Part shown: piece after piece, positions 37,951 to 57,184 of the stretch | Position numbering within the stretch: the stretch's first letter is position 1 | How the letters are laid out: every line of letters begins with the position of its first letter | Source: an uncultured Methanosarcinaceae archaeon | Lineage (GTDB): Archaea; Halobacteriota; Methanosarcinia; Methanosarcinales; Methanosarcinaceae | Assembly (NCBI GenBank): GCA_963721455.1 | Contig: CAVRJG010000051.1 | Span: 1 to 64,000 of the forward strand | Reading direction: 5' to 3' | Length of the DNA: 64,000 nucleotides | The notes under the pieces: model-generated | Told to the model about the DNA's origin: nothing | What the model saw: the letters and a program-made list of their open reading frames with translations, nothing else | The model's database searches: none | Program-made: the position numbers and the translations under genes

Positions 37951-38375
37951 GCCTGTGGGTTCAGGGCAGTTTAAATTTAAAACGCAATTTATTCCGGGTT
38001 TAAACCTGATAGATTTACTTTAAATTGTGGGCAGGGTCCCGGGGCATCTCACCTTTTCAAAGAGGACTCTGCCTGCAGTTTTTTCTAAAGAATTCTCGGA
38101 GATTCTGGTAAAGAAGAAACGCCTGGGAAATACTTATTATGTATGCTCTTCAGACCCTTCTTTTTTCTTGTTTTTGGGGTGCCTGAGAATAAAAATAATC
38201 CCCGGAAGGTAACACATGCGAGCCTGAAGCAAGTGTAAAACTGAATATAAGAAAGGGGATATAATATAAGGTACAAAATATCCGATAAAAAATTTCTATT
38301 GGTGCAGTAATGTAACCTGTATGGTTATTTACAGGAACATTTCAGGTATAATCTGGCTATCTGGGGGAAAATGGT

Positions 38376-52646: not shown

Positions 52647-54464
52647 ATGATGTCGGCAATTGAATGGGCTGAGAAATACCGGCCCAAGACCCTCAAGGAG
52701 ATCGTGGGAAACAAGAAGGCGGTACAGGATTTGGAGACCTGGGCTGAGGAGTGGCTTTCAGGCATTCCTGAGAGAAGGGCAGTGATCCTTCACGGGCCTG
52801 CAGGTGTAGGGAAGACTTCAAGTGCCCACGCTCTTGCCCGGGATCTGGGCTGGGAAGTAATCGAACTCAATGCAAGCGACCAGAGAACTGCAGGTGTGAT
52901 CGAGAAGATTGCGGGATCGGCAGCGTCGATGAAGACTCTCTTCGGAGGAAAACGCCTGATCATCCTGGACGAAGCGGACAATATCCACGGGACTGCAGAC
53001 AGAGGGGGGATGCGGGCCATTGCAGGGATTATAAAAACCACACTTCAACCAATAGTGCTGATCGCAAACGACGTTTACGGGTTGACTCCTGCTATCAGGA
53101 GCCTCTGTTTTGAAATAAAGTTCGGGTCCGTGCAGAGCCGCTCCATGGTCCCGGCTTTGAAGAAGGTATGCGAGAGTGAGGGAATTTCATGTAGCCCGGA
53201 TGCGGTCCAGAAGATTTCGGAAAGTGCGGGGGGTGACCTCCGGAGTGCAATGAACGACCTTCAGGCTTCTGCCAGCGGAAAGAAAGTGCTGGAGGCGGAG
53301 GACATCAGCACTTCAGGCAGGGACGTCAAGGAAAATATCTTCAAGGCAATGCAGAAGATATTCAAGAGCACTGACTGTAAAAGGGCCCTGGAAGCTGCCC
53401 GTGGGCTTGATGAAAGTCCTGAAGATCTTGTACACTGGATTGATGAAAACCTGCCTATCCAGTATGCCTGCAAAGACGGGGACCTCGGGGATATAAGAAC
53501 CGGTTTTGGTTATCTCTCTAAGGCTGACCTCTATCTGGGGCGCGTAAAGAAACGCCAGAACTATCGGATGTGGAGATATGCCAGTATGCTGATGGTTTGC
53601 GGAGCTGCAATCTCAAAGACAAGGCCCTACCCCGGATTTATCAAGTACCAGCAGCCTTCTCTCTGGAAGAGGCTCGGGCAGACTCGTTCGAAGCGAGATC
53701 TCAGGGACAATCTCGCTTCTACAATCGGAGAACACAGCTTCAAATCCATGCGCTATTCCAGAAATAATCTGCTGGAGCTTTACTCTCACCTGGTAAAGGA
53801 CGAGGAATCTGCGGTTGAAATTACTGCAGGCCTAGGGCTTGAACTTGAGGGATTGATATATCTCTCGGGAAGCACAAAAGCCAGCAAAAAACTGCAGAAA
53901 ATTTATGATGAGGCGCAGGAACTGCTCCTTGAAGGAAAAGAAAAATCTGAAGAAATGGAATTTTTCAAAACTCCTGCTCCTTCAGGAAACGATAAACAGG
54001 TATCCTCCGGTTCCGCAGTTAAAATTCCCGGGGGAAAAGATGTGGAATCTTCTGGCAAATCTGAAATCTCCGCTTCCCTTACTTCCGAAGGCAAGCAGAA
54101 GATCCTTAAATTTGGTTTTGACATTTCTCCGGAGGAGATCTCCGGGGAAAAGAAGAATTCAGGAAGCAATACGTCTGCTACCCTCACATCTGATGATCTT
54201 AAACCTGATACCCTTACATCTGATGAGACTAAGGCTAAGAATATTTCCTCTTTGCCAGAATCCTCTGAGAAGGGTGTATCTGGTGGCCCTGAACCGATGG
54301 CTTTCGCGGCATCTCCTGAGTTTTCAAAGCAAAAGGAACTTACAAACAGCGAACCTGTTATCAGGAAAGTTACTGAACTTAAGCCCGCAGGCCTTGAGGT
54401 CGACGCCACCGAAGTTTCTAGAAAACCCGAGTCGAAATCCCAGAAGACACTTTTCGACTTCTAA
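52647..54464 (+). CDS. rfcL: Replication factor C large subunit
   Basis: [31 protein letters not shown] and [11 protein letters not shown] motifs; C-terminal PIP box QKTLFDF. Confidence 0.96.
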
Positions 54465-54843
54465 TTTTTTTTCGCTCTTTGTTCAAAATAATTTACATTT
54501 TTTTCCGGACTGCAGTATCGTAAGAAGGCTTCTTTCAGATTGCATGGGACTGATGAAAAGAGAGTTGAAATGCAAAATTAGAACAAAGTTGAGATAAGTC
54601 CCACTAAGTATTTGTAACGAAATAACTTAGGCAATGAATAATTTAGTTAAAGTTAAATAATCCCTCTTGCGTGTGAAAGTTATTTAATACATCTTTAAAA
54701 ACTGCCTATATTATTTCGCGGTGGGTCCTAAAATGAGATCAACTTTGAATAGATTGAGATAAACTCCGAATAAGCTGAGATAATTTTACAAAAAGTGTGA
54801 TAATTTACAAGAAAATCGAGACACAAAAAAGAGAGAAAAGTTT

Positions 54844-54932
54844 GTGAGCGGGTTGGAGAGTTTTGGGGAATAGTTGGGGAAATAGTTGGGGGAATAGTTG
54901 GGGGTTATACTATGGAAAATAGACCCGCTCAC
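54844..54932 (-). ncRNA. Candidate sRNA A: terminal stem enclosing repeated CCCCAACUAU motifs
   Basis: GTGAGCGGGT...ACCCGCTCAC stem; BRE/TATA-like GAAAAGCTATTTATA on the minus strand ~24 nt upstream (54956-54970); T-rich terminator-like tract downstream. Confidence 0.55.
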
Positions 54933-55115
54933 TTGACATGACTACCTATTCATGCTATAAATAGCTTTTCACTTTATTTTTTATAATTTATAATCGAGGA
55001 TTTATAATTCAAGGCTCGTCTATTTTGCAGGAAATTATACTTCTTTATGTAGAACTCGATAATTAATGGGCGGAATTAAAACCTAAATAAATATTTCTCT
55101 TTTATGAGAATGGAA

Positions 55116-55188
55116 TGAGCGGGTTGGGGGTATGAATTGGGTTGTTGGGTTGTTGGGTGTTTATCTAACAAAAGAGAGACTCGCTCAC
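55116..55188 (-). ncRNA. Candidate sRNA B, paralog of A (CCCAACAA repeats)
   Basis: TGAGCGGGT...ACTCGCTCA stem; minus-strand TATTTATA at 55210-55217. Confidence 0.5.
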
Positions 55189-55503
55189 AAGCTAATCATG
55201 CTAATCCGATATAAATATATTTTGTTTAATGTTTATATTCCTCAAAATTACAGCAGGCTTACCTGTAAATGAAATAAATCTAATTGTCCAAAACAAGTAA
55301 ACTTTATTTCAGTTTTCCTATTTTTTCCTGTACACAAGATAGTAGACGTGAAGGATATACATCAATTTCACTTCGTGTTAATAATAATAATAATTCCTCA
55401 GATAATCTCTTAAGTTCCTCCCCTAACAAAAGAGATATATATAACTAGTGACATTTTGACCCTGCACTTAGAGCAATTCTGCAAATGTAAGCAACGGTAA
55501 AAT

Positions 55504-55580
55504 GGGCTCGTGGTCTAGTCGGTTATGACATCGCCTTTACACGGCGGGGATCCTGAGTTCGAATCTCAGCGGGCCCACCA
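55504..55580 (+). tRNA. tRNA-Val(TAC) with encoded CCA
   Basis: GGGCTCG acceptor paired with CGGGCCC-ACCA; D arm TGGTCTAGTCGGTTATGAC; anticodon arm TCGCC-TT-TAC-AC-GGCGG; T loop GTTCGAATC. Confidence 0.96.
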
Positions 55581-57108: not shown

Positions 57109-57184
57109 TGCTGATCAGCCTGAAAGCCGCTGATTTTTTCACAAAAGTCCTGAACACTCTTACTGCTGGAAATGGGGGTATTAT

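Follow-up and report, generated by a model that had tools for sequence, protein, structure and literature searches.

The interval of about 1 kb between rfcL, which encodes an RFC-type AAA+ protein, and tRNA-Val in contig CAVRJG010000051.1 of an uncultured Methanosarcinaceae archaeon raises the question of whether it harbors genes of its own and, if so, what these might do. A preliminary description of this 64,000-nucleotide stretch (hereafter, the window) had proposed that the interval holds two related small RNA (sRNA) units on the minus strand, each transcribed from its own promoter, and two related units are indeed present on that strand where it had placed them. Our analyses indicate that these units, A and B, are almost certainly independent small non-coding RNA genes with their own TATA promoters, that they are the counterparts of sRNA022 and sRNA021 of Methanosarcina mazei, respectively, and that they belong to a family distributed across the order Methanosarcinales.

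Two units with a common plan

Each unit is preceded by a TATA box, with a spacer of 23 nucleotides (nt) to the first stem base in unit A and of 21 nt in unit B, and archaeal TATA boxes set the transcription start at this distance (21-23 nt). The RNA would begin and end in the two arms of a terminal stem, which comprises ten of ten pairs in unit A and nine of ten in unit B (with an A-C mismatch at pair 8 and G-U at pair 1), and the number of occurrences of this stem pattern expected by chance in the window is 0.00. The predicted fold of unit A consists of the 10-bp stem alone (-16.5 kcal/mol, z -6.1, with 0 of 200 shuffled sequences as good), and that of unit B is weaker (-8.0 kcal/mol, z -1.4, with 19 of 200 shuffled sequences as good).

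The repeated C-rich words that had been reported from an unstructured interior do lie in an open loop. In unit A, this loop of 69 nt contains a single G and proceeds from CUAUUUUCCAUAGUAUAA (a U-rich 5' part, CUAUUUUCC, followed by AUAA) through three CCCC(C)AACUAUU repeats to CCCCAAAACUCUCCA, encompassing UUUU and four C4-C5 runs. The 54-nt loop of unit B presents CCCAACAA twice, together with UUUU and a single C5 run plus C3 runs; having the U-run and only one run of at least four C, it displays the C-run feature in part.

A family spanning the Methanosarcinales

In the counts that follow, genus, family and order designate Methanosarcina, Methanosarcinaceae and Methanosarcinales, as inferred from the relatives of the RFC-like protein, whose best named match is that of Methanosarcina sp. 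Z-7115 (88% identity), followed by other Methanosarcinaceae, Methanococcoides and Candidatus Methanoperedens. The genomes searched are a sample of relatives, and the counts document presence and cannot be taken as evidence of absence. With BLASTN, both units were recovered from 18 of the 24 other Methanosarcina genomes searched and from none of the 16 that represent different genera of the order. A covariance model (R1), built from an alignment (A1) of 68 distinct copies, yielded matches in 121 of 151 genomes and 12 of 16 genera at the family level, with 33 of 34 genomes within the genus, and in 105 of 151 genomes and 21 of 23 genera at the order level (43/48, 15/20, 11/27, 31/48, 4/6 and 0/1 genomes by family). 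In the other orders of the class, it returned candidate matches in 6 of 76 genomes, at E-values of 0.007-0.01 only. The hits from other families that were read (19/19) all display a U-run, C-runs (for instance CCCCCACUCCCC) and arms complementary to each other. Genomes usually carry two to five copies, and a whole-genome search with R1 located three in the genome of origin: unit A (92.1 bits, E-value 1e-15), unit B (53.8 bits, E-value 1.3e-7) and a copy on a different contig (C54), the matches of units A and B being partly by construction, as both are among the sequences from which R1 was built.

The location of the family with respect to rfcL is also maintained. Of 80 rfcL loci, 44 have one or more members in the 2.5 kb downstream of the gene, and the 78 R1 matches at rfcL loci all lie on the strand opposite rfcL, an arrangement that the units of the window share. 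Some relatives present a third, more divergent unit in this cluster (L081:4494-4571, L070:4173-4251 and L072:4609-4686), and a repeat module has been gained in some cluster copies, as illustrated by the three AAUUCAUACUCCCC in L070. The extra units and repeat modules of these relatives therefore indicate that the rfcL-downstream cluster grows and shrinks.

The comparison with Rfam that the preliminary description had suggested identified no family matching the units. Using Rfam 15, the tRNA alone reaches the gathering score in the window, nothing relevant appears between 54600 and 55500 up to an E-value of 10, and the same is true of six other members up to an E-value of 1.

A covarying stem closing a C-rich, G-poor loop

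The family is defined by a helix of 10 bp formed by the two ends of the RNA, (G/A)UGAGCGGGU with ACCCGCUCA(C/U). Within Methanosarcina, 99.1% of stem cells are paired (68 sequences), and in these same sequences covariation does not rise above that of shuffled alignments. A set of 32 distinct distant members shows pairing in 96.9% of cells and changes on both sides in six of the ten pairs (27 cells), a level of covariation that 0 of 500 shuffles reach and for which slid controls give at most one such pair. The alignment of distant members was fitted to the model, which favors pairing, and the variants can also be read directly in the sequences: GCGAACGGGU with ACCCGUUCGC, ACGAGCGGGU with ACCCGCUCGU, AUAAGCGGGU with ACCCGCUUAU, GUGAGUGGGU with ACCCACUCAC, and UUGCACGGGU with ACCCGUGCAA. 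The changes on both sides of six pairs in distant members therefore establish the stem as a real RNA helix, and the proposed terminal stem is upheld as both conserved and, in distant relatives, covarying. Its core, CGGGU/ACCCG, never varies across the order.

The loops of 133 distinct members are composed of 42% C, 26% U, 28.5% A and 3.4% G, and 119 of them have at most two G. A run of at least four U is found near the 5' side in 130, and at least two runs of at least four C in 112, with two to five C-runs following the initial U-run. The shared loop word is CCCCCACUCCCCAA, which takes the forms CCCC(C)AAC and ACUC(C/U)CCAA in units A and B. The number of repeats varies by species, from two to four CCCCAACUAUU modules, as would be expected of a modular multivalent binder. 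For the 140 distinct members with flanking sequence, a TATA-like hexamer is present in 135 and lies 20-27 nt from the stem in 126; 75 of them show a T-run of at least four no more than 20 nt from the 3' arm, and 35 have none within 60 nt.

Counterparts in Methanosarcina mazei

To relate the family to known transcripts, strings from the copies of relatives were matched to records of M. mazei Go1 in the supplement of a ribosome-profiling study (Nat Commun 2024; PMC11456600), which credits the original sRNA catalogue to its reference 27. A genome of the same genus (G013, loci L018 and L214) contains strings identical to the cores printed there for sRNA021, sRNA022 and sRNA047. Unit A is identical to the copy of that genome equal to sRNA022 in 82 of 95 aligned columns, and unit B to the copy equal to sRNA021 in 65 of 76. 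The M. mazei-type copies have the same stem, promoter spacing and tandem order as the units of the window. They differ in that unit A bears three clean CCCC(C)AACUAUU repeats, compared to CCCCAAACCCAUAU plus two repeats in the M. mazei type, and in that the C-runs of unit B are shorter and its stem contains a mismatch, the host being another species.

The supplement locates sRNA021 at 336282-336365 (84 nt), in a record that begins precisely at the first stem base, and sRNA022 at 336727-336912 (186 nt), in a record that begins 2 nt ahead of the stem (PMC11456600). According to the same tables, the RNA levels in reads per kilobase per million range from 29,949 to 142,299 for sRNA021, from 19,663 to 45,761 for sRNA022 and from 481,730 to 698,607 for sRNA047 (RNA baseMean 353,667), and none of the three changes significantly with nitrogen (RNA log2 change of -0.42 for sRNA021 and +0.22 for sRNA022).

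The preliminary description had regarded these RNAs as part of an undescribed system. This does not hold for the transcripts, which are already catalogued as sRNA021 and sRNA022 and highly expressed in M. mazei according to that supplement; it stands for the family, which is not in print as far as the literature search reached. No discussion of sRNA021 or sRNA022 was found in the main text of PMC11456600. The literature searched, which lay outside the original 2009 catalogue and the sRNA41 paper, yielded neither a function for sRNA021, sRNA022 or sRNA047 nor a description of the three as one family. Within the reach of that search, what appears to be new is the grouping into a family, its range, its structure and its non-coding nature.

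The supplement also lists sORF_035, a predicted open reading frame (ORF) on the G-rich strand opposite sRNA021, which corresponds to approximately 55116-55250 (+) in the window (PMC11456600). An antisense transcript at this position would be fully complementary to sRNA021.

Layout of the locus and further copies in the genome

The coordinates of both units and of their neighbors are listed in Table 1. A purine-rich stretch, GAAAAGC, precedes the TATA box of unit A. The U-rich tract that had been noted at the end of this unit is present as two T-runs, which are likely, from their sequence and position, to constitute the archaeal termination signal for a short form of the RNA. The four repeats located just downstream may belong to a longer read-through form of the unit A RNA, and a possible role for them is that of staggered termination signals. 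The M. mazei sRNA022 record also continues for some 90 nt beyond the stem and traverses a similar repeated stretch. A scan for bacterial-type promoters and terminators was set aside as not applicable to an archaeon.

Table 1. Features of the interval between rfcL and tRNA-Val, in window coordinates.
Feature	Position	Strand	Remarks
RFC-type AAA+ gene (rfcL)	52647-54464	+	AAA, RFC lid and Rad17 domains
(A/T)TTATC(A/T)CA, four copies, ~20-21-nt spacing	54729-54806	-	repeat search; just downstream of unit A
T-runs TTTT and TTTTTT after unit A	54839-54836; 54830-54825	-	sequence
Unit A RNA core	54844-54932	-	10-bp closing stem around 69-nt loop; sRNA022 counterpart
Unit A 3' arm ACCCGCTCAC	54853-54844	-	sequence
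Unit A loop, 69 nt	54922-54854	-	sequence
Unit A loop word CCCCAAAACTCTCCA	54868-54854	-	sequence
Unit A loop word CCCCAACTATT	54879-54869	-	sequence
Unit A loop word CCCCCAACTATTT	54892-54880	-	sequence
Unit A loop word CCCCCAACTATT	54904-54893	-	sequence
Unit A 5' arm GTGAGCGGGT	54932-54923	-	sequence
Unit A promoter, TATA box TATTTATA	54963-54956	-	23 nt from TTTATA hexamer to first stem base
Unit B RNA core	55115-55188	-	closing stem around 54-nt loop; sRNA021 counterpart
Unit B 3' arm ACCCGCTCAT	55124-55115	-	sequence
Unit B 5' arm GTGAGCGAGT	55188-55179	-	sequence
Unit B promoter, TATA box TATTTATA	55217-55210	-	21-nt spacer to stem
tRNA-Val(TAC)	55504-55580	+	flanks the gap on the other side

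With respect to the genus, unit B shows a G-to-A change in the stem, which creates the A-C mismatch, and C-runs cut to CCC. Its R1 score of 53.8 bits compares with 64-80 bits for the B-type copies of relatives, and the copy in this genome thus appears somewhat eroded.

The third member, outside the window, was identified with R1 at C54:15857-15929 (+), which corresponds to locus L113:1501-1573. It is the counterpart of sRNA047, being identical over 73 nt to the M. mazei-type copy, and its loop contains CCCCCCACUCCCCA twice. Matches with exactly the score of this copy are listed for 27 genomes. Among 20 genomes of two genera from which the third copy was fetched, 18 have it identical at 73 of 73 nt with differing flanks, and the remaining two carry one substitution and one extra C, respectively; these 20 loci were chosen for a model score equal to that of the copy analyzed here, and their identity is partly by selection. 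The neighbors of the C54 copy, an MFS-like membrane protein and an ORF of 121 amino acids, offered no functional lead.

A second subfamily was observed on the minus strand elsewhere in this genome, at C15:169589-169672, C15:167521-167592, C15:79810-79896, C62:13428-13511, C62:11263-11345 and near position 94173 of C52. Its members follow a similar plan, with a TATA box, an end-to-end stem, a U-run and a CCCCCACUCCCAA-type loop, and differ in their stem, which is GGGCAUCUG with CAGAUGCCC, or GAACGGGCGAG with CUCGCUCGUUC on C52. They are missed by R1, and what they have in common with the R1 family is the loop word, not the stem. BLASTN matches to one member of this subfamily were obtained in 17 of 30 other Methanosarcina genomes, where they often occur in tandem.

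Proposed pairing with G-rich ribosome-binding sites

Regarding the function of these RNAs, we tentatively favor, at a confidence somewhat short of even, a mechanism in which the C-runs pair with ribosome-binding sites containing G-runs. The helix would shield both ends of the RNA, rendering it stable and abundant, and the U-run may hold an Sm-like protein. The exposed C-runs would then pair with G-rich ribosome-binding sites, chiefly those of the GGGGG or UGGGGGAA class. CCCCC should pair with GGGGG sites better than the CCUCC of the 16S rRNA tail does, as the latter has to include a G-U pair. Each molecule offers several seeds and each genome several genes, and the RNAs could in this way compete with the small ribosomal subunit and lower or tune how strongly mRNAs with sites of the UGGGGGAA or GGGGAGUG type are translated.

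The 3' end of the 16S rRNA is GGAUCACCUCCU (including CACCUCCU), which resembles the family loop word CACUCCCC flanked by C. Words of 6 and 7 letters complementary to the loops show a 2.5- to 7-fold enrichment at positions -25 to -2 of 3,081 ORF starts, with 25 instances of GGGGGAA compared to 3.4 expected and 15 of TGGGGGA compared to 2.8 expected; these gene calls are crude (the first ATG of ORFs of at least 150 codons), which blurs the start sites. In some distant members from two other families (L183, L194, L179, L180 and L185), CCACCUCCUUUU or ACCUCCC follows right after the 3' arm, and is in turn followed by a U-run; this word is the same as that at the 16S 3' end.

Several results weigh against this mechanism. 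Ordinary Shine-Dalgarno words are likewise enriched at the same starts (71 instances of AGGAGG compared to 13.9 expected), and CCCCC pairs badly with GGAGG, the commonest of these words. Duplex energies computed for the three loops were no better in start regions than in windows inside genes, the fractions at or below -14 kcal/mol being 0.26 and 0.24 for unit A, 0.17 and 0.19 for unit B, and 0.28 and 0.24 for the third copy, respectively. Shuffled loops bind start regions as well or better, and perfect seeds of at least 9 nt occur in 47 of the 3,081 start regions, compared to 34 for a reversed-loop decoy and 23 and 39 for windows inside genes. The G-rich leaders to which the preliminary description had matched the C-rich words are present in the window, with TGGGGGAA at 38362 and 40807 and TGGGGGTA at 57173, at a frequency not above chance: TGGGGGWA occurs six times compared to 4.83 expected, 37 of 100 shuffles reach six, and two of the six sites are the opposite strand of the units themselves. 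The near-total identity of the third copy over 73 nt, which is partly by selection, would fit a protein-held RNA better than one acting through short seeds, and the invariant CGGGU/ACCCG core hints at sequence-specific recognition. Lastly, the evidence for discrete small-RNA transcription comes from the M. mazei tables, and nothing from three metatranscriptome runs was placed on the stretch of the window.

Pairing with other RNAs was also explored. A short-query BLASTN search of both units against their own genome found no antisense match longer than 15 nt, the best duplexes with rRNA (-21 to -32 kcal/mol) were within or close to the values obtained for random 6.8-kb segments, and complementarity to the 52 tRNAs extended to at most seven bases.

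A possible role as protein decoys or components of a ribonucleoprotein

The alternative that fares best is that the RNAs serve as protein decoys or as the RNA component of an abundant ribonucleoprotein (RNP), their stem and C-rich words being bound by a protein that reads single-stranded C-rich RNA and that the RNAs would titrate or carry. They would act in the manner of CsrB/RsmZ or Y RNA, to which they are not related. We consider this to be rather unlikely, though a serious contender. Several of the observations above are consistent with it, including the invariance of the stem core throughout the order, the differences in motif copy number between species, the results of the pairing target tests, which were no better than controls, and the identity of the third copy, loop included, in 18 of 20 fetched genomes with differing flanks, subject to the selection of those loci. 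A candidate partner would be a KH-domain protein whose usual ligand is the CCUCC end of the 16S rRNA. No partner protein is known, however, and pairing with mRNA would explain equally well why the loop word resembles the 16S tail. Neither CsrA (PF02599) nor Ro/TROVE (PF05731) has a match in the genome of origin, which is 98.5% complete, whereas both match in control genomes, and the sole consistent neighbor gene, rfcL, is without a known RNA role. The M. mazei tables, on the other hand, report a very high abundance that is the same across conditions and, for sRNA047, a footprint-to-RNA ratio of 0.33, about three times that of other sRNAs, which could reflect a protected particle (PMC11456600).

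Improbable readings: small proteins and DNA-level elements

A further possibility is that the units are small protein-coding mRNAs, with a start at the GUG that opens the stem and with the peptides sORF_036 and sORF_037 as products. The supplement of PMC11456600 places sORF_036 on sRNA021, sORF_037 on sRNA022 and sORF_070 on sRNA047, with a "yes" for manual curation of the ribosome-profiling data in all three cases, and most copies have the same initial six codons (V S G S L F). These conserved codons, however, are simply the stem and the U-run. Furthermore, the reading frame is not kept, because single-base changes in the length of the C-runs spread unit length over the three frames (lengths modulo 3 of 0, 1 and 2 in 8, 16 and 12 of 36 A-type sequences and in 11, 8 and 9 of 28 B-type sequences). 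An in-frame stop interrupts 16 of the 28 B-type and 7 of the 36 A-type sequences at one of codons 7-9, and unit B of the window can be read for only seven codons before a stop at codon 8. The supplement also records a "no" in its proteomics column for sORF_036, sORF_037 and sORF_070 (PMC11456600), and its footprint-to-RNA ratios for sRNA021 (0.11) and sRNA022 (0.13) match those of the regulatory sRNA041, sRNA154 and sRNA162 (0.105-0.13). We thus deem a coding function very improbable and, contrary to the curation flag of that supplement, read the units as non-coding RNAs. What likelihood is left by pairing, by a protein-bound RNA and by a small protein falls to something not yet thought of.

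That the units are instead DNA-level elements, with arms that either delimit a miniature mobile element or form a palindrome bound by protein close to the replication gene rfcL, is scarcely credible: the arms are perfect inverted repeats present in several copies per genome, two of them beside rfcL, but position and orientation are fixed (44 of 80 loci, with 78 of 78 matches opposite the rfcL strand), the promoter stands at a fixed distance, compensatory changes preserve pairing and include G-U pairs, relevant only in RNA, copy number is low and stable (two to five per genome), and the M. mazei tables record abundant transcripts.

Comparison with known small RNAs

The closest functional precedents within the genus are sRNA41 (sRNA041), sRNA154 and sRNA162, intergenic sRNAs of M. 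mazei reported to mask ribosome-binding sites (PMC5867862, PMC3510493). Like the family, they are intergenic RNAs of Methanosarcina with their own promoter and a single-stranded pyrimidine-rich part that could cover a ribosome-binding site, and sRNA041 is of similar abundance (RNA baseMean 285,575) and has a similar footprint-to-RNA ratio in the tables of PMC11456600. In contrast with the end-to-end stem and G-free loop of the family, these sRNAs form internal hairpins with one or two sites, and they have known targets, of which the family members have none. An identity of the units with sRNA41 was rejected, as the printed sRNA041 sequence is unrelated, and a comparison by eye found neither the stem nor the loop words of the units in the printed sequences of sRNA041, sRNA154 and sRNA162.

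Among bacterial sRNAs, RsaE/RoxS of the Firmicutes and 6C of the Actinobacteria pair with G-rich Shine-Dalgarno regions by means of exposed C-runs. They resemble the family in having several such runs, in being conserved at the level of an order or phylum and in being often abundant. Their C-runs reside in hairpin loops, unlike those of the family, which lie in a single large open loop that the two ends of the RNA close, they have no Rfam match to the units, and the promoter and termination of the units are archaeal. CsrB and RsmZ share with the family a repeated short motif in unpaired RNA, a variable number of motifs and abundance, but their motif is GGA rather than C-rich, and the cognate CsrA was not found in the genome of origin. 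Y RNA likewise combines an end-to-end conserved stem, a pyrimidine-rich loop and abundance; the family differs from it in having no tRNA-like or bulged-stem module, and TROVE was not found in the genome of origin.

Implications

A function is known for very few archaeal sRNAs, and Methanosarcina serves as the principal genetic model among methane-producing archaea. The analyses reported here join three catalogued M. mazei RNAs into one family with a defined structure, a search model and a range that takes in most genera of the order, and they argue that the small ORFs recently proposed on sRNA021, sRNA022 and sRNA047 are not conserved.

A broader and more speculative reading, which we think improbable though worth stating, is that the family constitutes a housekeeping class of very abundant, order-wide RNAs that copy the mRNA-docking end of the 16S rRNA and act globally, rather than a set of target-specific riboregulators. 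If true, this class would set the rate or selectivity of translation initiation, either through sequestration of G-run sites or through retention of a protein that recognizes the 16S tail, and would represent an archaeal counterpart of CsrB, 6S or Y RNA, in logic and not in descent. Should these RNAs compete for G-run sites or hold such a reader of the 16S tail, they would form a global layer of translation control in methanogens.

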